IMG/VR virus record: IMGVR_UViG_3300033747_000027
Coordinates: 1-54,836 of that record
Length of the DNA stretch: 54,836 nucleotides
DNA from: a virus
Taxonomy: Duplodnaviria > Caudoviricetes
Strand: one strand, 5' to 3'
In this document: positions 2,991 through 54,836 of the stretch, in pieces
How positions within the stretch are numbered: the stretch's first letter is position 1
How the letters are laid out: the number at the start of each line of letters is the position of its first letter
Made by a program: the position numbers and the translations under genes
The notes under the pieces: model-generated
Database searches by the model: none
The model's input: only the letters and a program-made list of their open reading frames with translations
Told to the model about the DNA's origin: nothing

Positions 2991-4940
2991 ATGAAACAGG
3001 TAAAAATTAAAAAGCTGATCCTTCACAATTTCAAAGGGATCAAGGATTTCGAGACCGTTTTTAACGGTACCACCAAGATTTTTGGTGACAATGCCACCGG
3101 AAAAACAACCCTTGTTGATGCCTTTACATGGCTTCTATTTGGGAAAGACTCAACAGGGAGGAAAGATTTCTCTATCAAAACATTTGATGCGAACAACCAA
3201 CCGATTCACAAGCTAGACCACGAAGTTGTCTGTGAATTTGATGTAGATGGTGAGGATATGATCCTTAAACGTGTTTATCGCGAGAAATGGGTTACCCGTC
3301 GCGGATCAAGCGAACCGGAGCTCCAAGGCCATGAAACGCTATTCTACTGGAACGATGTGCCAATGCAGGCCGGTGAATTTCAAAAGAAAGTCGATCAGGT
3401 TATTTCGGAGGATACTTTCAAAATGCTTACATCTCCTTTCTACTTTAACACCCTAAAATGGCAGGACAGAAGAAGCATTTTAACGACCATTGCCGGAGAT
3501 GTGTCCGATCAGGATATCGCATCAGGAAACCTTGAGTTTTCGGCTCTCATTGAAAATATGGGAAATAAAACCCTTGACGAATTCAAAAAGGAGCTGGCAG
3601 CCAAAAAGAAAAAGCTGAAAGACGAACTGAAGCAAATTCCTGCTCGAATTGACGAGGTTACCAGAAACACGCCTGAAGCTAAAGACTGGGCTTGGATTGA
3701 GGACGAAATTAAAACGGTTGAGAAAAACATCGCTATCATCGATGAGCAGCTTCAGGATTCATCAAAAATTTTTGACGATTTCTACAAAAAGAAACAGGAG
3801 CGCCAACAAAAGATCCATGTAATAAAATCAAAAATCTCTGACATTGAACATGAAGGCCGGTTGAAATTCAATAATCAGGTCAAAGAGAAAAATGAATCAA
3901 TTGAAAATGCGAAATCAGAAATCCAAAGGATCAACAGAAAAATTGAAACCGGAGCCAAAGAAATCAAAGATCTGCAGGAAAGGATTAAGACCTATCAGGA
4001 TGAGCAGAACCGATTGCGCCAAGAATGGGGAAAAGTAAATGAAGAGGAATTTCCAGGGTTCGGCGATGAAGGCAATTTCAAATGTCCCACATGTCAGCAA
4101 GACCTTCCAACTGAAACTATCGAAAGCAAAAAAGCTGAAATTAAAGTGAACTTCAATGCTGAAAAAGAAAGAAAGCTTGCCGATATATCAGCTCAAGGAG
4201 TAGGCTACAAGATAAAAATTGAGAATACACAAAAGGATATTGGACAGCTTCAGTCTGTAGACTATGAATCACAAATTAAAGCTCATGAGGCTGTCATTAA
4301 AGAATGGCAGGAAAAACACCTTGAGTCTGTTCAAGCATTGATTTCTGGAAATGTTGACTACGAGCGATTGAAGAAGGAACTTGAAGAATTCGAGAAAGAA
4401 CCAGTTGAAGAAGAAGCTCCGAAGGTTGACAACTCAGGCCTGAAAGAAAAAAAGACAGCTCTCAATTCTACTCTTGACGGATTAAAAAAGAACCTAAACT
4501 CAAAGTCACAGATTGAAACCGCTGACAAACGGAAGAAACAGCTTCTGGATGAGGAAAGAAAATACTCTCAGCAGCTGGCAGAATTGGAACAATCCGAATT
4601 CACAATACAGGAGTTCACGAAAGCCAAGGTTGATCTACTTGAAGCAAAAATCAACAGTCTATTTGAAGGTGTGAGATTTCGGATGTTCGACACACAGCTG
4701 AATGGGGGACTGATTGAGTGCTGCGATACGATTATTGATGGCGTGCCTTGGCTTGATGCGAATAACGCTGCAAAGATTAACGCAGGAATAGAAATCATCA
4801 ACGTGCTTTCAAAACACTACGAACAAGTCGCTCCTATATGGATCGACAATGCGGAAAGTATCACCAAAATTACGGACTCAGAGGCTCAAAAGATCGAACT
4901 ATACGTCTCAGAAGCTCACAAAGAATTAGAAGTCGCATAA
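2991..4940 (+). CDS. SMC/Rad50-like AAA ATPase
   Basis: NFKG; Walker A GDNATGKTT; long coiled coil with CPTC zinc hook; IWIDNAES Walker B. Confidence 0.88.
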   Translation: MKQVKIKKLILHNFKGIKDFETVFNGTTKIFGDNATGKTTLVDAFTWLLFGKDSTGRKDFSIKTFDANNQPIHKLDHEVVCEFDVDGEDMILKRVYREKWVTRRGSSEPELQGHETLFYWNDVPMQAGEFQKKVDQVISEDTFKMLTSPFYFNTLKWQDRRSILTTIAGDVSDQDIASGNLEFSALIENMGNKTLDEFKKELAAKKKKLKDELKQIPARIDEVTRNTPEAKDWAWIEDEIKTVEKNIAIIDEQLQDSSKIFDDFYKKKQERQQKIHVIKSKISDIEHEGRLKFNNQVKEKNESIENAKSEIQRINRKIETGAKEIKDLQERIKTYQDEQNRLRQEWGKVNEEEFPGFGDEGNFKCPTCQQDLPTETIESKKAEIKVNFNAEKERKLADISAQGVGYKIKIENTQKDIGQLQSVDYESQIKAHEAVIKEWQEKHLESVQALISGNVDYERLKKELEEFEKEPVEEEAPKVDNSGLKEKKTALNSTLDGLKKNLNSKSQIETADKRKKQLLDEERKYSQQLAELEQSEFTIQEFTKAKVDLLEAKINSLFEGVRFRMFDTQLNGGLIECCDTIIDGVPWLDANNAAKINAGIEIINVLSKHYEQVAPIWIDNAESITKITDSEAQKIELYVSEAHKELEVA

Positions 4941-4956
4941 TTAAAAATCAAATCAA

Positions 4957-5922
4957 ATGAAAGCTGAAAGTAATGAAGTGGCGGTAAGACAACAATCCGC
5001 CCCAGTACAATTTAATTTTTTTGACAATAACCACTTCGCAACAATGCAAAGGGTTTGTGGTATGTTCTCTTCAAGCGAACTGGTACCTAAAATGTATCAA
5101 ACAAGTGAGGTTGGCAAGGAAAAAGCAGTGGCAAATTGCATGATCGCAGTTGAGACCGCTCAACGCATCGGCGCCAGTCCACTAATGGTCATGCAGAATA
5201 TGTATATAGTACATGGCCAGCCAGCATGGAGTGCAAAATTCTTAACGGCTACGGTTAACGGTTGCGGTCGGTACAACTCCATTAAATACAAATGGGAGAA
5301 TCTCGGAAAACTTGGGAAGGTTGAATATACAGATTATGAGTATAAAAACAACCGAAGAGTGCCAGTTACCAAGCATTTTGACGCATCCGGACTGGATAAT
5401 TGGCAATGCATTGCTTATACGACCGAAAAAGGAACCAATGAAAAATTGGATTCAATTCCTGTTTCTCTTGAAATGGCCATTAAAGAAGGTTGGTATACAA
5501 AATCCGGTAGTAAATGGCAAACCATGCCAAAACTGATGCTTCAATATCGGTCTGTTACTTTTTGGACTCGTGCATACGCACCGGAGCTTTCCATGGGAAT
5601 ACGAACAGAAGATGAAGTTAAGGATATTATCGATGTTCCTTATGAAGAAGTCAAGGAAACCGAAAAAAAGAAGAACGCTAACCAAAAGGAGGTTTCTATT
5701 CCTGTAAATGAACCAGAATCCAGTAAGTCTGGAAAGGCGGAAGATACAAAAGAATCTCTCTCTCAAGTCACCGTGAAGTCAATTGATGAAGCGAAAAAAT
5801 TCTTAGTGGATGATTTGGGAGTGTCACAGACTGCAATCGGTGATGAAGCTTCTATTTTATCAATAGCCAAGGAACATGACATTGAGTTAACAATCGAAAA
5901 ACAAACCGGCCCCGGATTTTAA
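4957..5922 (+). CDS. RecT-like single-strand annealing protein
   Basis: VMQNMYIVHGQP and SKWQTMPKLML...FWTRAYAPELSMG motifs; lies between the AAA ATPase and the MBL hydrolase. Confidence 0.75.
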   Translation: MKAESNEVAVRQQSAPVQFNFFDNNHFATMQRVCGMFSSSELVPKMYQTSEVGKEKAVANCMIAVETAQRIGASPLMVMQNMYIVHGQPAWSAKFLTATVNGCGRYNSIKYKWENLGKLGKVEYTDYEYKNNRRVPVTKHFDASGLDNWQCIAYTTEKGTNEKLDSIPVSLEMAIKEGWYTKSGSKWQTMPKLMLQYRSVTFWTRAYAPELSMGIRTEDEVKDIIDVPYEEVKETEKKKNANQKEVSIPVNEPESSKSGKAEDTKESLSQVTVKSIDEAKKFLVDDLGVSQTAIGDEASILSIAKEHDIELTIEKQTGPGF

Positions 5923-5925
5923 GCT

Positions 5926-6216
5926 ATGGAATATCATTTTAAAGTTGAAACCAAAGAAGCTGGGCAAAGACGCCCATATGGTGATTCTTATTATCACTAT
6001 ATCGTCAAGAACGAAAGTAAAACCCAATATCATGAATCTATAATTAAGAATTTCTGTGTTGGCTTTTTGAAGCCTGCTATATCAGAAAAACTTAGAAGAG
6101 AGCGTATGGAAAAAGAGGGTTTTGGATCAGCGACATTTGCCTCCTACTGGACTGTTTTTAGACAGATTGATGATAGAACATTTGAATACAAAGTTACTCA
6201 ACCTTCAACGCATTAA
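5926..6216 (+). CDS. Hypothetical protein
   Basis: ORF tightly packed in the operon. Confidence 0.65.
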   Translation: MEYHFKVETKEAGQRRPYGDSYYHYIVKNESKTQYHESIIKNFCVGFLKPAISEKLRRERMEKEGFGSATFASYWTVFRQIDDRTFEYKVTQPSTH

Positions 6217-13155: not shown

Positions 13156-13677
13156 ATGTGTGACGGAAATTTAGCTATGGCAAATGTGCTCGAATATGAT
13201 AATGACTATCTAGAATCAATATTTGAAAATAAACTAATGAAACGAAGTGAAATAATAGACAACTATAAAGCATTCTTCGGGCTTGAGGATATGCCCTTAG
13301 GAGAAAACGACAATCTAATGATTGCTTGGGCTGAAAACCTATTGGCTGATGTCAAAAAAGACAGAGGTGTAATGATCTTAGGTGACCACATGGACTACGA
13401 AGCATTAAAACGAACCATTGAAATACTCGACATCCAAAAAGAAGATGGAAAAGGAATTGCAATCGTTGGTAGTCGTCAGGTTTATTCGAAGGCCATTGAG
13501 TTGGCACAAGATGAAGCTCATAGAGCTTTTAAAGAATCCAAACCAGAAGTTATGGAATTGCTACCGCGATTGATTGAACCAACAGTTTATGACTTAGAAC
13601 GCCCAAGCAAACGTGAGAATAAAAACAAAAAAGGCCGTAACTCTCACCGCTATGGCCGCAGACCAAGTAAATTTTGA
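13156..13677 (+). CDS. Hypothetical protein
   Basis: ORF in the operon; basic C-terminus. Confidence 0.6.
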   Translation: MCDGNLAMANVLEYDNDYLESIFENKLMKRSEIIDNYKAFFGLEDMPLGENDNLMIAWAENLLADVKKDRGVMILGDHMDYEALKRTIEILDIQKEDGKGIAIVGSRQVYSKAIELAQDEAHRAFKESKPEVMELLPRLIEPTVYDLERPSKRENKNKKGRNSHRYGRRPSKF

Positions 13678-13680
13678 GCT

Positions 13681-14388
13681 ATGCCACTAAATAAATCAAA
13701 AGGAAACATGTACGAATGGATTACCCACACTTGGAATCCATTAGCTGGTGAATGTCCTCACAGATGTAGTTACTGCAGTACTAATAAATTAATGCGATAT
13801 CCAGCTATATTAGAAAAATACAGTGGAGATCCTCGCTTGTCCGGACACGAACTTCTATGCAGCCTGGGAGAGGGAAACTTTATATTTGTGGCTGCTCAAA
13901 ACGATCTGTTTGCTGAAGCTATTCCGGACACCATAATCAAGAGGATTCTAAACCATTGCCGGAAGTTTAATAACAAGTACCTATTCCAGACAAAAAACCC
14001 AAGAAGATTATTCGACTTCGAATTTGAGCTTGCCGGGCTTGATTTTGTCCTGTGTACTACCATTGAGACAAACCGATTCGATCCAGAAATAATGAATAAC
14101 TGCCCCGATCCAGAAATAAGAGCTGATATGATGAACGAGCTTTGGCATGAGTTCAGAGGGATTGAATTAAAAAACTATGTCACCATTGAACCGATAATGG
14201 ATTTTGATATGGAAGAAATGGTTGAAATGATTGAAACCTGTTTGCCAGAACAAGTAAACATCGGCGCGGACAGCGGAAACAATAACCTTCCTGAGCCATC
14301 AAAGGAGAAGATTCAGGCACTTACAAAGAGGCTTGAGGTATTCACTACTGTGAAACTGAAAAGTAACCTTAAAAGGATAATGGATTAA
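13681..14388 (+). CDS. DUF5131/Gp37Gp68 radical-SAM-like protein
   Basis: TWNPLAGECPHRCSYC (CxxxCxxC), DLF, QTKNP and EP motifs. Confidence 0.8.
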   Translation: MPLNKSKGNMYEWITHTWNPLAGECPHRCSYCSTNKLMRYPAILEKYSGDPRLSGHELLCSLGEGNFIFVAAQNDLFAEAIPDTIIKRILNHCRKFNNKYLFQTKNPRRLFDFEFELAGLDFVLCTTIETNRFDPEIMNNCPDPEIRADMMNELWHEFRGIELKNYVTIEPIMDFDMEEMVEMIETCLPEQVNIGADSGNNNLPEPSKEKIQALTKRLEVFTTVKLKSNLKRIMD

Positions 14389-14912
14389 TGCCACTACTAA
14401 ACGATTTTAGAGGGAATTACAGCCTTGGTTATTGCGAAGATACCATGCAAGCCAATGTTGAAAAATGGCTGTTGGATTATACTTTCTGGAGGTCAACGGA
14501 AGGGGGGTATTCCCGGGAGAAAGTTAACCCAAAAACATACAGAGAGGTGCATATTCCTGAAATCGGGCGACGATCGGATTTGATAGTATATTTTTCAAGT
14601 AGAAAAGTCTTCAATATTGAATGCAAATTGTTCAATGTCGAAGAAGTCGTTAAGCAGGCCAAAGATCATCTCTACTGGGCTGATTACTCATACATCTGTT
14701 TTCCTCACAATGTTTACATGCCAAACTATCAAAAAAAACAAATACTTGAGCACGGGATTGGTCTTCTGTATTGGATCCCTGAATTTGGATTGGTTGAATC
14801 TATCATGGCAGAGCATAATAAGAGTAAAAAAGACAAGCTGATACGCAAAAATGTACTTAGAAAGCTCAAAAAAATAGATATGCAAAATAGTCAACAACAC
14901 ATTAATTTTTAA
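14388..14912 (+). CDS. PD-(D/E)XK nuclease (MmcB-like)
   Basis: REV...RSDL...IECK...Q...ADYSY...GIGLL. Confidence 0.65.
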   Translation: MPLLNDFRGNYSLGYCEDTMQANVEKWLLDYTFWRSTEGGYSREKVNPKTYREVHIPEIGRRSDLIVYFSSRKVFNIECKLFNVEEVVKQAKDHLYWADYSYICFPHNVYMPNYQKKQILEHGIGLLYWIPEFGLVESIMAEHNKSKKDKLIRKNVLRKLKKIDMQNSQQHINF

Positions 14913-14915
14913 TTT

Positions 14916-15383
14916 ATGAAAGCAAGAAAATTTAATGAAGCCAATACAGTAATTGGTTTCGGACAAGATGAGTATCAAGGAATTCCAGCACGTAAGGAAA
15001 CACATCCTGAATTCAAAGGAATGGATGTATTTACCATGTGCTTTGAACTGGATGAAGAAGAGCGGAAACAAGTGGCAGAAACAGGCTGTATATGGCTTAA
15101 AAGGCTTCAGCCTAAAAACGTTGGATTTCACCCAATCGGTCCTGACGTATTGAAGCCAGAAAACTTTCAAAACGTTGATGAGGCCAACAAAGGAGAAGGA
15201 TTCGACCCTGAAACATTCGATATCAAAACGCTCGATTTGGATAAGGTTAATTACTTCTATAAAAGACAAGCAGCTGCCCATTTGGAACTCAAGCCAAAGG
15301 GGAAAAAAGAGGAGGATTACGATGCTATTCTCATGGAAGCTAAAGAAGCTGCAATGTCAGGAACTTCTAGCCCTGGATTTTAA
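14916..15383 (+). CDS. Hypothetical phage protein
   Basis: Last gene before the cassette array. Confidence 0.65.
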   Translation: MKARKFNEANTVIGFGQDEYQGIPARKETHPEFKGMDVFTMCFELDEEERKQVAETGCIWLKRLQPKNVGFHPIGPDVLKPENFQNVDEANKGEGFDPETFDIKTLDLDKVNYFYKRQAAAHLELKPKGKKEEDYDAILMEAKEAAMSGTSSPGF

Positions 15384-15441
15384 ATCTGACAGCGGTATAT
15401 TGTCGGTTTCCGATTGAACTTCCGGCTGATTTTATACGAGT

Positions 15442-15717
15442 AAATAACGTTGAGTGTTTGTGGAGTGCGTGAAATATCTACTACTGTTGATTAGAAAGAA
15501 TAACTTTAAAATACATAAGTAATGAGCGAATTTGAAAAAGAACATTTAGAACTTATACAAAGTAATTGCTTTTGGGCTGGTTACTTGATTGATTTACCGA
15601 AAGATGAAGCGTGGAGATTAGCTAATGGAATAGTGGATGAAATAAAGTTTGCAATACAGCAAGCGAATGGGGCTGAACAAAGCACCGACCAAGCATTACA
15701 TAAACATAGTGTTATGC
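15442..15717 (-). repeat. Giant attC-like site of the distal cassette
   Basis: TAACGTTGAGTGTTTGTGGAGTGC (15445-68) pairs with GCATTACATAAACATAGTGTTA (15693-714) using G.T pairs on the + strand. Confidence 0.7.
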
Positions 15718-15893
15718 CCTCGTTGCATCTTTTTAAAGAGCGTAGGGATAAATTGAACTTAACACTAAGACAAGTTGCTGAACAAACAAAAGTGAGTGCT
15801 GCCACTATAAGTAGAATTGAGAGAGGGGAGGGAGAATGTAGCTACCATAATGTAGTACAGTTAGATGATTATTATTGCCGCAACGGGGCATAA
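15522..15893 (+). CDS. XRE-type HTH protein (cassette-borne; reads through the GTTA core; TAA stop lies in the TAAC core)
   Basis: LTLRQVAEQTKVSAATISRIERG. Confidence 0.8.
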   Translation: MSEFEKEHLELIQSNCFWAGYLIDLPKDEAWRLANGIVDEIKFAIQQANGAEQSTDQALHKHSVMPSLHLFKERRDKLNLTLRQVAEQTKVSAATISRIERGEGECSYHNVVQLDDYYCRNGA

Positions 15894-16647
15894 CGAAAAA
15901 TGTATGTTTTGTAGCGTGAAATATGCACTACCGTTTATTCGAAGCACAAAATAAAAAACAGAAGGGAAGGAATTTTTAAATTTTAAATATATGACTTGTA
16001 TAGTAGGTTTAATTGATAACAAAAATAAAAGTGTTTTGATTGGTGGCGATTCAGCCGCTGTTTCTGATTCAAATATTTTTATAAGAAAAGATGCGAAAGT
16101 ATTTAAAAACTGTGATTTTGTGATTGGATGCACTTCTTCATTTAGAATGATTCAACTTCTAAGGTATTCATTTAAGCCACCAAAAGTTGAATCGAAAGAC
16201 GTTTATGAATATATGTGTACCGATTTTATAAATGCAGTTAGAGAATGCTTTAAAGAAGGTGGATATTTGCAAAAATATACCGATGGAGACGAAAGGGGAG
16301 GAACTTTTTTAGTTGGCTATAAGAATAGACTATTTAAGGTTGAAAATGATTTTCAAGTTGCTGAAAATATGAACGGTATTGATGCTTGCGGATGTGGTCA
16401 AGATTTTGCTCTTGGTGCTTTGTATTCATTAGTAAAACACAATATTTCGACAAATGATAAAATATTAAAAGCATTGGAAGCGGCTGAGTTTTTAGGCAAT
16501 GGTGTACGAAGACCATTTACGCTACTTGGAACTTAACAAAACGGTTTTGAAAAAACCGAAGTGCGCAGGGGTTTTTTATTTCCTCAATTACGCAGAAACG
16601 TTGATTAAATGAACGATACAGCTATAAAATATACATGGTGTTATACC
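15888..16647 (-). repeat. Giant attC-like site of the proximal cassette (loop contains the peptidase gene)
   Basis: TAACGAAAAATGTATGTTTTGTAGC (15891-915) pairs with GCTATAAAATATACATGGTGTTA (16621-43). Confidence 0.7.
15991..16536 (+). CDS. HslV/proteasome-beta-like Ntn peptidase
   Basis: N-terminal M-T-C-I-V-G (Thr nucleophile), GGDS, K at about position 36, GCG...ALGAL. Confidence 0.78.
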   Translation: MTCIVGLIDNKNKSVLIGGDSAAVSDSNIFIRKDAKVFKNCDFVIGCTSSFRMIQLLRYSFKPPKVESKDVYEYMCTDFINAVRECFKEGGYLQKYTDGDERGGTFLVGYKNRLFKVENDFQVAENMNGIDACGCGQDFALGALYSLVKHNISTNDKILKALEAAEFLGNGVRRPFTLLGT

Positions 16648-16728
16648 AACAAAACCTTTTTCGGTTTTGTGTGCGTTGCGCCATGTATTTAGCTTTCAAA
16701 TTTATTTACAATTGTTTTGGCGCAATGA

Positions 16729-16757
16729 GGTATAACGTGTGCGTATAAAAATCTAGC
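16729..16757 (-). other. attI-like recombination site 5' of the recombinase
   Basis: On the - strand it reads GCTAGATTTTTATACGCACAC-G|TTATACC; the flank is an imperfect inverted repeat of 15425-15438. Confidence 0.6.
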
Positions 16758-16786
16758 TTGAAAATCAATCATTTAAATCAAATATA

Positions 16787-17599
16787 ATGAATAAATTTTT
16801 ACAGAAATATGAAATGGAGTTACGGCTTCGAAATTACAGTCAAAACACGATTAACAGCTACATGAGCGAGGCTAAACTGTTTTTGAGGCATTTCAACCAT
16901 CCGCCTGGAGAAATATCCGAAACGGAAATCAAGAAATACCTGAAAGCTTCTAAGTCAACCTCGCAATTAAAACAGCGAATCGGAGCGCTTAAACGCTTCT
17001 ATCAGTTAGTCGTTAAACAACCTCTAAAGTTTAAGTACATCGACTATCCGCGTAGGGAGGAGCATTTGCCGGTTGTACTTTCACAGGATGAAGTAAGGCG
17101 GCTGTTTACCGTTTGTAAATACCCAAAGCACAGGGCAATTTTGTTTCTATTTTACTCAACGGGGATGCGCGAAGGAGAGCTGATCAATCTGAAGATCACC
17201 GACATTGACAGCGACCGGATGGTGATTCACATCCGGCAAGGCAAAGGCAATAAAGACCGACTGGTACCGCTTTCCGAAAAGACGCTCGACGCGCTTCGGA
17301 AATACTACAAAAAGGACTGTCCGACCAACTATTTATTTAACGGGCAATTCCGGGATCAATACTCCGCCACCTCAATTTACAATATGGTGAAAGACTATGC
17401 CCGCAAAGCAGGCATAAAAAAGCGCGTTTACCCGCACCTGATACGCCACTGCGCCGGCACACACCTTTACGAAGAGGGCACGGATATGTCGAAAATTCAG
17501 GAAATTTTTGGACATAAGCAACAAAAGACAACCAGGCGTTACGCCCGCATGTCCACTCGCATGATTTCTCAAGTTAAGACACCAGATTCATATTTATAA
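16787..17599 (+). CDS. Tyrosine recombinase, integron-integrase-like (SAM_4-type N-terminus)
   Basis: LRLRNYSQNTINSY, LPVVLSQDEV, GMR, GKGNKDR, HLIRH, FGH and TTRRY: full catalytic set R-K-H-R-H-Y. Confidence 0.9.
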   Translation: MNKFLQKYEMELRLRNYSQNTINSYMSEAKLFLRHFNHPPGEISETEIKKYLKASKSTSQLKQRIGALKRFYQLVVKQPLKFKYIDYPRREEHLPVVLSQDEVRRLFTVCKYPKHRAILFLFYSTGMREGELINLKITDIDSDRMVIHIRQGKGNKDRLVPLSEKTLDALRKYYKKDCPTNYLFNGQFRDQYSATSIYNMVKDYARKAGIKKRVYPHLIRHCAGTHLYEEGTDMSKIQEIFGHKQQKTTRRYARMSTRMISQVKTPDSYL

Positions 17600-17627
17600 A
17601 AACCCCGGATCAACACGTGATCCGGGG
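17598..17627 (-). terminator. Intrinsic terminator where the two arms converge
   Basis: CCCCGGATCA/TGATCCGGGG 10-bp stem with a T-tract on the - strand. Confidence 0.8.
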
Positions 17628-17649
17628 CAACTAACCTTAATCCATAAAA

Positions 17650-18063
17650 CTAAACTGAAGTATCTGACCTAATCCTAATCTGGCCGACTAATTCTTTATT
17701 TTTTGGTAATAAATTCACTTCTTTTGTTCGGAATCTATGCCTATCATACTTCCGATTTTGACAATGAACATAGGCGCTTTCTGTAGTATTCATCACTCCA
17801 ACTCTATTAAAGTATAATGGCTGTTCTGCAACCGCTGATTGCGTATGAACTCCACCTCCTTCCTTTTGAATGAATTGCGGTTCAACACAACTAACTACTA
17901 CATACTGTACATCTACAGCCTGAATGGCAGCAAATGACAATGTTGGTCCATTGTCGGCTACAAAGCATACCTGATCGGCAGCTGTAGCCTGAACCTGGCT
18001 CCCGGGCGGCATGGCCACGAGTAACCCAATCGCGAGAGCAAATAATGCTAGAAAAATTTTCAT
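17650..18063 (-). CDS. Hypothetical exported protein
   Basis: Signal peptide MKIFLALFALAIGLLVA. Confidence 0.6.
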   Translation of the reverse strand: MKIFLALFALAIGLLVAMPPGSQVQATAADQVCFVADNGPTLSFAAIQAVDVQYVVVSCVEPQFIQKEGGGVHTQSAVAEQPLYFNRVGVMNTTESAYVHCQNRKYDRHRFRTKEVNLLPKNKELVGQIRIRSDTSV

Positions 18064-18105
18064 TTGATTGAATTTAAGTTAAACATATATACAACAGGCA
18101 AAAGC

Positions 18106-19583: not shown

Positions 19584-19711
19584 CTAAAAATCAAATCATT
19601 CTCAAATTACAGTCTCTGAATTAAAATATAGGAAGACTGAAATATTTACTACTTATTGTAATTGCAAACATTAGCCGGGGGCTTCTTTCATCCCCACGGC
19701 TAATAAAAAAA

Positions 19712-54620: not shown

Positions 54621-54836
54621 TTATTTCAATAAGTCCAAAACCTTTCTGTTAACTTCGTCATATATAGAGTAATCAATCTCAATATAAATATCTGCCATTT
54701 TATAATCGTTGTTGACGTGTCCAAGGCAAAAGTCAATATCAGCTTTCGAAATTCCGGCTTTGTTCCTTGCCAGGCTTGCCCATGTATGACGAGCCCAATT
54801 TGTGGTGATCTTTGGATACTCCAACGTTTTGCAAAT
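54621..54836 (-). CDS. Tyrosine integrase, C-terminal part (ORF open to the window edge)
   Basis: WARHTWASLAR...LGH...IY box II motifs. Confidence 0.85.
   Translation of the reverse strand: MCKTLEYPKITTNWARHTWASLARNKAGISKADIDFCLGHVNNDYKMADIYIEIDYSIYDEVNRKVLDLLK

Follow-up and report, generated by a model that had tools for sequence, protein, structure and literature searches.

In a Bacteroidota prophage, the 1.3-kb interval that separates the early operon from the gene for a XerA-like tyrosine recombinase is probably a short integron-like array of two cassettes. The best explanation overall, and one that we favor reasonably but not strongly, is that the units of this array are joined at TAAC|G beside the recombinase gene and that the two mirrored motifs at its ends (the arms) come from two different sites. 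A broader proposition, for which we would claim slightly better than an even chance, is that such arrays are an IntI-independent counterpart of integrons in Bacteroidota phages, in which the XerA-like recombinase captures, stores and reorders single-gene cassettes, read toward its own gene behind the early operon, via folded TAAC/GTTA sites; the arms would then be binding boxes, and the dyad obtained by joining them a product of whole-array excision. Arrays of this kind were found at ∼60 distinct loci, including one in the cultured Polaribacter phage Leef_1.

Genome organization and the recombinase

The window analysed here is the 54836-nt IMG/VR provirus record IMGVR_UViG_3300033747_000027 (Caudoviricetes), taken whole and with a completeness rating of 97%; the host phage is a prophage of Bacteroidota. 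Pfam and PHROG scans show an S24 repressor and a LuxR/GerE protein at the left end of the record, and an early operon on the + strand codes for an SMC-like ATPase, RecT, a metallo-beta-lactamase-fold protein, an SNF2 helicase and a DUF5131 protein. The last gene of this tightly packed operon (14916–15383, +; 155 aa) belongs to no Pfam family and has no relatives in the viral contigs or the fetched loci, and the array starts past its stop codon. Two small + strand ORFs, 15522–15893 (HTH) and 15991–16536 (PHROG 1040), lie between the operon and the recombinase gene (16787–17599, +), on which lysis, tail and head genes converge from the − strand. The genes neighboring the array are not conserved among the fetched loci. 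No similar DNA was recovered from the INPHARED phage collection with positions 13600–18100 as the query, an Rfam search of 15000–17000 gave nothing at E ≤ 1, scans for sigma-70-type promoters and terminators gave counts no higher than those in shuffled sequences, and neither tRNA genes nor repeats at the record ends were found. A Mu-like transposable phage was considered and rejected, the 649-aa and 321-aa ORFs being an SMC/Rad50-like ATPase and RecT, and the record having no rve match; serine recombinase matches are likewise absent from it.

The recombinase is a 270-aa protein with SAM_4 and Phage_integrase domains (Pfam, PHROG and protein-family models), and is co-linear with the XerA structures 5hxy (E 4e-41) and 4a8e. 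It just passes the XerA model NF040815 (221.1 vs a cut-off of 220) and fails both integron-integrase models, with 164.5 bits vs a cut-off of 265 for TIGR02249 and 96.4 vs 435 for NF011946. In alignment with IntI4 (2a3v) its residues 172–191 (20 aa) face residues 179–241 (63 aa), and the ∼40-residue insertion of IntI is missing.

A fixed site adjacent to the recombinase gene

Database searches returned 563 relatives of the recombinase at E ≤ 1e-20 among 940 candidates, the named ones from Bacteroidota, and 80 genome loci and 80 viral loci were fetched for comparison. In the seven closest relatives (63–65% recombinase identity) the DNA is conserved from a TAAC to the recombinase start codon and is unrelated left of the TAAC. 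The form TAAC-G-N6-(C)TATACAAAAC is common to six of the seven, the exception being L085 with CAAC...TATACGAAC; more distant phage loci (41–50% identity) have YTAAC-TAYTATATGTAA at the equivalent distance. A strict form of this pattern is present in 62 of 77 distinct upstream sequences whose recombinases are at least 41% identical, vs 1 of 41 below 41%.

The corresponding site of the window spans 16737–16786 (+), and its position and form are those of the relatives, although the version here is divergent. It follows directly on the right junction core TAAC (16733–16736, +; then G) and consists of the spacer GTGTG, a box CGTATAAAAATC (16742–16753) and repeated AAAATC-like words that continue up to the start codon. 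The window fails the strict pattern because its box reads CGTATAAAAATC. On this comparative evidence the stretch from the TAAC at 16733 to the recombinase start is shown to be a fixed recombinase-proximal site of this phage family. The right arm, CGTATAAAAATCTAGC (16742–16757, +), is by virtue of that conservation the box of the family-wide site, in a divergent version. The right-flank 21-mer of the window had no matches in viral or genome contigs, and the collections searched contain no relative closer than 65% recombinase identity, so that variation at the window's own site has never been seen.

Exchange of blocks at TAACG

Between loci L148 and L150 the identity is 99.9% across the proximal site and recombinase gene, and 99.3% across 963 nt of backbone. 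Their arrays have four blocks in common (97.7–100% identity) that stand in different order, start with TAACG, end in TAAC(G) and have unlike flanks, and one block that is internal in L148 is recombinase-proximal in L150. When breakpoints are defined as the ends of blocks at least 95% identical and common to related arrays, 24 of the 33 distinct breakpoints at all loci have a TAAC at most 6 nt away in both partners, vs 26 of 5000 random position pairs. Within the L148 sister group, the same left flank and proximal site enclose arrays of 1717 nt (four loci), 2658 nt (two loci) and ∼5.0 kb. Moreover, an independent metagenome run (X5) contains at least four contigs that match the window from 16632, 16660 or 16671 to 16737 and are unlike it after 16737.

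Breakpoints, reordered blocks and X5 contigs together give good support both to a crossover in TAAC and to a cassette model. Each had been proposed in an initial sequence-only reading of this DNA. The crossover is borne out by the breakpoints, the conservation of the proximal site and the X5 contigs, and is placed more exactly at TAACG; the cassette model gains from the relatives, with their conserved proximal site, hairpins between ORFs and reordered TAACG-bounded blocks. Cassettes that appear to have moved as units bounded at the crossover are thus seen in relatives and not in the window. Contigs of the source run (X1), a form of data that drops rare variants, contained no excision or alternative joint, and no strand-changing joint was present in the contigs examined. 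Runs X3 and X4 were rejected as evidence, having only ∼135–150-nt pieces of the HslV-like ORF, as was an X5 joint (15477>15691) with only 24 letters on one side.

The mirrored arms and the question of an empty site

The left arm, GCTGATTTTATACG (15425–15438, +), has the character of an L' box, with CGTATAAAATCAGC as its reverse complement, and is separated by 6 nt from the left junction core TAAC to its right (15445–15448, +; then G), a core read directly from the sequence and seen in alignment with L004. The reverse complement of the left arm aligns with the right arm over 14 positions with two 1-nt gaps, around a perfect 9-mer core (TTTTATACG/CGTATAAAA). Each arm is 5–6 nt from a TAAC, and the TAAC cores are direct, not inverted. 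That these motifs form an imperfect inverted repeat was the starting observation of the sequence-only reading, and direct inspection finds every position correct. Joining at the two TAACs does yield a dyad as it was written there, with 15 nt (AGTAAA + TAAC + GTGTG) between the perfect cores.

We compared the arms with 4947 random TAAC-flank pairs from the same window, taking 30 nt left of one TAAC and 30 nt right of another. The probability of a score at least as high as that observed is 0.0024 and that of a perfect run of at least 9 is 0.0028, both being single-feature figures for a repeat picked out from many features. The 9-mer CGTATAAAA has three copies on both strands of the 54836 nt vs 0.59 expected, and 4 of 100 shuffles reach three. 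Two of these are the arms; the third (301–309) was rejected as a further site, lying in a coding frame with no adjacent TAAC. The arm pair is missing among the 25 longest of 46 inverted pairs because its ungapped stretch is short. Given the low P values, the rare 9-mer and the coding position of its third copy, the repeat is real and no typical accident, and the observation of mirrored motifs is confirmed. Both arms are versions of a box motif (GTATA + A-run) that recurs in hairpins and proximal sites, and this shared motif raises the odds of an arm match.

The initial interpretation was that the arms are the halves of a palindromic, ancestral attI-like site into which the array was inserted at TAAC, and which exact loss of the array would regenerate. 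The repeat is indeed real and rare, each of its arms is close to a TAAC, and in the L148 group the variable zone has a related left-flank word, TATACG-NN-TAAAT...TAAC, as its boundary. Under the established integron model, moreover, the DNA past the last cassette of a platform derives from the distal side of the site first used for insertion, which counts in favor of this interpretation, and the boundary word of the L148 group and the improbable repeat together mean that the left arm could be a functional boundary site. We nonetheless consider an ancestral site unlikely.

The left arm is part of an element, w0 (15384–15448, +), that appears from alignment with loci L004 and L167 to be a truncated 'leader-type' cassette recombination element ending in TAAC. 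It is homologous along its length to L004:3083–3149 and L167:1397–1460, its 5' end reading TAAA where both of these have TAAC; the similarity to L004 extends over ∼65 nt and ends exactly at TAAC, and everything past the internal TAAC of the L004/L167 element is missing from w0. The left arm is identical at 19/19 positions in L004 and L167, where it lies within the arrays, in an element headed by a TAACG of its own and flanked on either side by hairpin sites and cassettes. That element continues not with attI-type sequence but with 17 nt and the ATG of an ORF, and therefore cassette 1 of the window is joined to what in the relatives is an internal (secondary) TAAC. Since cassette 1 starts with the usual post-junction sequence and w0 is truncated, we do not read the left junction as half of a platform. 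Furthermore, the identical left arm of L004 is accompanied by a different right arm, the consensus CCTATACAAAAC, and the inverted repeat there is at the chance level (P 0.51); in the L148 group it has P 0.02–0.10, via a different word. The left and right arms do not co-vary.

A search for the empty junction, which the sequence-only reading had offered as a check, used as queries the unchanged left-flank 19-mer (ending in the left TAAC) and the right-flank 21-mer. The 19-mer matched no viral contig, four genome sequences and three metagenome sequences. One match in each of the latter collections is real in the sense of having similar flanks (L165, which is the contig of L004, and L167), and chance alone would give a 19-mer ∼4 matches across 596 billion bases; L163, L164, L166, L168 and L169 were rejected as chance, their flanks being unlike. 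The empty junction is absent from the viral, genome and metagenome collections and from seven sister-group loci, albeit that this is weak evidence, and no locus among those examined has the left flank abutting the proximal site.

What stands of the initial interpretation is the TAAC crossover and a cassette array beside an attI-like, recombinase-proximal site. The dyad as the ancestral empty site is not supported, in view of the left arm inside the L004/L167 arrays, the lack of co-variation and the failure to find an empty junction, and the mirrored motifs seem to belong to two different recombination sites instead of being the halves of one ancestral empty site. The absence of the dyad in relatives leaves the window's P of ∼0.003 partly unexplained, and the arms may have a real boundary function.

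In the two-site explanation that we favor, cassettes, each comprising one small ORF and an imperfect hairpin, are exchanged and reordered exactly at TAACG, as comparison shows for the relatives. These exchanges would be the work of the recombinase, acting probably on a folded single strand, and the proximal site would presumably be where new cassettes enter. The right arm would be the box of the proximal site, and the left arm a matching box in inverted orientation inside the truncated, cassette-borne w0. The mirror symmetry would then reflect a single recognition motif (GTATA + A-run) present in both orientations, much as on the two sides of a hairpin site. A deletion between the direct TAACs would yield the dyad, although nothing shows that the dyad ever existed or that it equals the empty platform of the family.

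Cassettes of the window and of its relatives

Cassette 1 (15449–15894, +) was delineated from the sequence, repeat pairs and Pfam, and its layout parallels that of L167 and L004. It has a 5' box TGTTTGT (15456–15462), an internal TAAC (15501–15504) followed after 17 nt by the ATG at 15522, a partner box ACATAAACA (15698–15706), a second partner box GTTATGCCC (15711–15719) and a 3' end GGGCATAAC (15886–15894), all on the + strand. Its ORF (15522–15893) codes for 123 aa with HTH_3/HTH_31 matches, and an alternative in-frame ATG inside GTTATG (15714) would give a 59-aa HTH protein. The proposed box pair has P 0.59 in the box-pairing test, in which another partner scored better. The junction core TAAC between the cassettes (15891–15894, +) overlaps the stop codon of the HTH ORF. 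Metagenome contigs bear on it as well: one ends at 15893, and another has TAACG and 19 unlike letters before it matches 15915–15980.

Cassette 2 (15895–16736, +), drawn from the box-pair test, the sequence and PHROG, has a 5' box ATGTATGTTTTGTAGC (15900–15915, +) that is complementary at 14/16 positions to the partner box GCTATAAAATATACAT (16621–16636, +), 700 nt away (P 0.003 vs shuffles). The partner box is followed by GTTATACC (16640–16647), which is complementary to the 3' end GGTATAAC (16729–16736, +). The ORF (15991–16536) codes for 181 aa and matches PHROG 1040, 'peptidase HslV family'. Stop-codon context alone probably accounts for the TAAC at 16534, which would then be no junction. 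As compact hairpins the window's own sites fold poorly, at −4.5 and −8.3 kcal/mol. We also note a word, G(C/A)NTGAAATAT..ACTAC, with three copies on the + strand, one of them far from the array.

In relatives, small ORFs are split by 90–130-nt imperfect hairpins of the form TAAC-G-spacer-box...box-spacer-GTTAT, and at 60 of 61 distinct loci the 1.5 kb preceding the recombinase gene has its coding strand in common with that gene. In seven relatives 20 of 21 sites fold at −26.7 kcal/mol or better (RNA parameters, with ends chosen by a script and hence biased), and with DNA parameters 7 of 10 hairpins have z ≤ −2 vs shuffles. A crude count over 99 loci finds 181 hairpins in the 366 kb on the upstream side of the recombinase gene (0.49/kb) vs 94 in the 543 kb on its downstream side (0.17/kb). 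Some cassette sites span 250–750 nt and enclose coding sequence. In the L004/L167 element the pairing partner of the 5' box is found ∼250 nt downstream, immediately ahead of a GTTA, and such long-range pairs have changed on both sides, from GCGGTTTGTT/AATAAACCGC in L004 to ATGTTTGTGT/ACATAAACAT in L167. Seventeen of 20 cargo ORFs belong to no Pfam family, and Bro-N and P22_AR_N were each found once. Leef_1, whose recombinase is 35% identical, has CTAAC|GCCCCTATATACG 60 nt before its integrase gene and TAAC/CAAC...GTTG/GTTA hairpins upstream of that gene.

Of the two strands, the one bearing the ORFs has the better fold in 9 of 10 hairpins. This is how RNA elements would behave, and the bias fits a role at the RNA level as well as one in single-stranded DNA. 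The hairpins and TAACG might accordingly be intergenic regulatory or RNA elements between which cassettes are shuffled by homologous recombination, much as has been suggested for the promoter stem-loops of T4-type phages, with the recombinase at work elsewhere, for example in dimer resolution; a protein that passes the XerA model would suit such a task, and a repeated word with a copy far from the array would suit such elements. The exchanged blocks, however, have only TAACG in common at their ends, with unlike flanks, a stretch too short for homologous exchange. That core also heads the conserved recombinase-side site in 62 of 77 distinct loci, and the arrays lie upstream of the recombinase gene throughout the family. 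We regard this combination of roles as improbable, and prefer cassettes moved by the recombinase.

The second integrase and the attachment-site question

A boundary between conserved and variable DNA next to an integrase gene resembles an att junction, and the 270-aa recombinase is the sole PF00589 match above threshold within the record. The TAAC beside its gene could on these grounds be the phage attachment site, with the variable DNA to the left belonging to the neighbor of an integrated phage. Phage genes lie on both sides of the TAAC, though, with RecT, the SNF2 helicase and the S24 repressor to the left and lysis and tail genes to the right, and the TAAC is found 16.7 kb into a provirus record of 54.8 kb, rated 97% complete. 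The variable DNA, moreover, is made of reorderable units common to several phages. The edge of the record cuts a second tyrosine recombinase gene, whose C-terminal 71 codons are present (54621–54836, −). At full length, on the same 228-kb parent contig, this is a 410-aa protein with an arm-DNA-binding domain, and it is likely to be the integration enzyme of the prophage. With such an integrase at the prophage edge the small recombinase is not needed for integration, and we consider an attachment site at the TAAC very unlikely.

That the 1.3-kb interval is an invertible segment, flipped at its inverted arms by the adjacent recombinase, is barely credible: inverted repeats do surround a segment beside a tyrosine recombinase gene, and models of tyrosine-type DNA invertases match the protein weakly (58 and 54 bits vs cut-offs of 222 and 221), but a single orientation is seen at 60 of 61 distinct loci, contigs contain no strand-changing joint and the TAAC cores are direct.

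Comparison with known systems

An array of cassettes that the adjacent recombinase would move recalls the integron. Both have a tyrosine recombinase gene beside a fixed site, followed by an array of one-gene cassettes that are reordered, are common to several hosts and carry cargo mostly of unknown function. The cassette sites of the relatives, like attC, are imperfect hairpins with ...AAC/GTT... ends, inner boxes, unpaired spacers and bulges, and the junction read on the other strand is G|TTA. Compared with attC, the window itself has weak compact folds and long-range box pairs, significant for cassette 2 and not for cassette 1. A conserved site adjoins the recombinase gene and starts at the junction core; it may correspond to attI if cassettes enter there, and one cassette is indeed proximal in L150 and internal in L148. 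In contrast to integrons, the phage recombinase has no IntI insertion and scores below the cut-offs of the integron-integrase models, some sites are as long as 250–750 nt and enclose coding sequence, and the system is phage-borne. The cassette ORFs, furthermore, which in integrons are read away from attI with expression from Pc, are here read toward the recombinase gene and on its strand (60 of 61 loci), and each hairpin therefore precedes its ORF. Although integron-like in its workings, the system departs from integrons in two defining features, the IntI domain and the orientation of the cassettes.

XerA is the best sequence match of the recombinase, and the rebuilt dyad superficially resembles the arm-spacer-arm core site of Xer/dif systems. 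Sites of the dif type are about 11-6-11 bp, and the pdif modules of Acinetobacter plasmids are a related system for comparison. The perfect 9-nt arms, however, stand 15 nt from each other in the rebuilt site and are separated by 1.3 kb in the actual DNA, and in place of a single dif-type site with a 6–8 bp spacer there are many TAACG sites per genome. In T4-type phages, repeated intergenic stem-loops containing early promoters flank small mobile genes, and the exchange is regarded as homologous; these are not known to have a dedicated recombinase or a 5-nt junction core.

If the recombinase does move the cassettes, these phages would own an integron-like device for swapping accessory genes, and it would run without the domain thought to define integron integrases. 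The cargo seen includes antirepressor-like Bro-N and P22_AR_N proteins, an HTH regulator and an HslV-like peptidase, along with a majority of unknowns. Such a device would bear on the origin of integrons from Xer-type enzymes and on the spread of phage accessory genes, possibly including counter-defence genes. The TAACG junction and the identified fixed site provide exact substrates for binding and recombination assays, which Leef_1, as a cultured phage with the same layout, makes feasible.

In the paper describing Leef_1 the integrase is taken to indicate a temperate phage, and the term integron does not occur. Classical IntI/attC components were identified by means of integron models in Vibrio, E. 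coli P1 and Shewanella phages by Qi et al. 2023 (PMC9892861); cassette recombination sites in phages are common to that report and ours, and its abstract and outline describe no Xer-like system. Our search of the literature, which covered main texts, found no description of such a system.

The rAID-1 arrays of Bacteroidales (recombinase-associated acquired interbacterial defence; Ross et al.) are closer. In these, a co-directional array opens at its 5' end with the recombinase gene (10.1101/471110) and consists of short co-oriented genes with repeated intergenic motifs, which their authors call 'reminiscent of integrons' (10.1101/471110; 10.1101/2025.05.03.651265). Shared with the present system, on those descriptions, are the Bacteroidota hosts and a Xer-type recombinase next to co-oriented short genes with repeated intergenic motifs. 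The same descriptions have the rAID-1 genes running away from the recombinase, immunity cargo and a chromosomal location, whereas here the array is upstream and phage-borne. Membership of rAID-1 is defined by a recombinase >44% identical to BF9343_RS08045, and the likeness here is drawn from the descriptions. A more direct link was dropped, the genus reached via L163 having given only housekeeping-like Xer genes (27–36% identical). On the accounts cited, the nearest described analogue of this phage system is rAID-1 of Bacteroidales, with a different gene order.

Cassettes and cassette sites in related phages and genomes

A cassette of ∼980 nt is common to two phages that encode recombinases of different groups, and the copies (3961–4943 of locus L105 and 4949–5930 of locus L132) are at least 95% identical; it is internal in the first and recombinase-proximal in the second. 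The 3′ part of cassette 2 in the window (16520–16737), which is devoid of an ORF and includes a 26-nt imperfect palindrome (16631–16688), turns up again in a variety of sequence contexts, many in number, in a separate metagenome from marine sediment, with a summed contig depth of up to 297.

The layout of the window's phage family is also present in the cultured Polaribacter phage Leef_1 (locus L187; MT732473: 23636–33400), with a proximal CTAAC site, small ORFs separated by hairpins, and one long-range box pair that encloses the start of an ORF. Acidobacteriota genomes (loci L016–L060) encode recombinases 38–40% identical to that of the window in many copies per genome, with 13 loci on one 6.6-Mb contig. 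Their conserved upstream sequence differs from that of the window's family, and judging from this sequence they are therefore probably a multi-copy element of another kind.

Other features of the window

The word G(C/A)NTGAAATAT-NN-ACTAC-N-TT occurs three times on the plus strand, twice in cassette 5′ regions (15467–15488 and 15914–15935) and once between the lysis and tail genes (19635–19656); a possible role is that of a promoter or a site for a regulator. Among the phage's genes is one for a LuxR/sigma-r4-like protein (1973–2566).

At 54621–54836 on the minus strand a gene is interrupted by the end of the record. Over its last 71 codons the product matches, at 100% identity, the C-terminal end of an arm-type tyrosine integrase of 410 aa encoded on the parent contig (228 kb), so the phage's likely integrase is cut by the provirus boundary.

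Hairpin folding and an alternative start

In nine of ten hairpins from seven loci of recombinase relatives (L084, L004, L085, L086, L083, L003 and L148), the ORF-bearing strand, which also carries the recombinase gene, gives a better fold under DNA parameters than the opposite strand does, because of G.T pairs. This bias hints that the hairpins function as a single strand, either DNA or RNA.

Within the HTH ORF of cassette 1, an in-frame ATG lies in a GTTAT core (15711–15716), and a start there would yield a 59-aa HTH protein of Xre size. Locus L084 likewise has an ORF whose start lies in a hairpin-terminal GTTATG.
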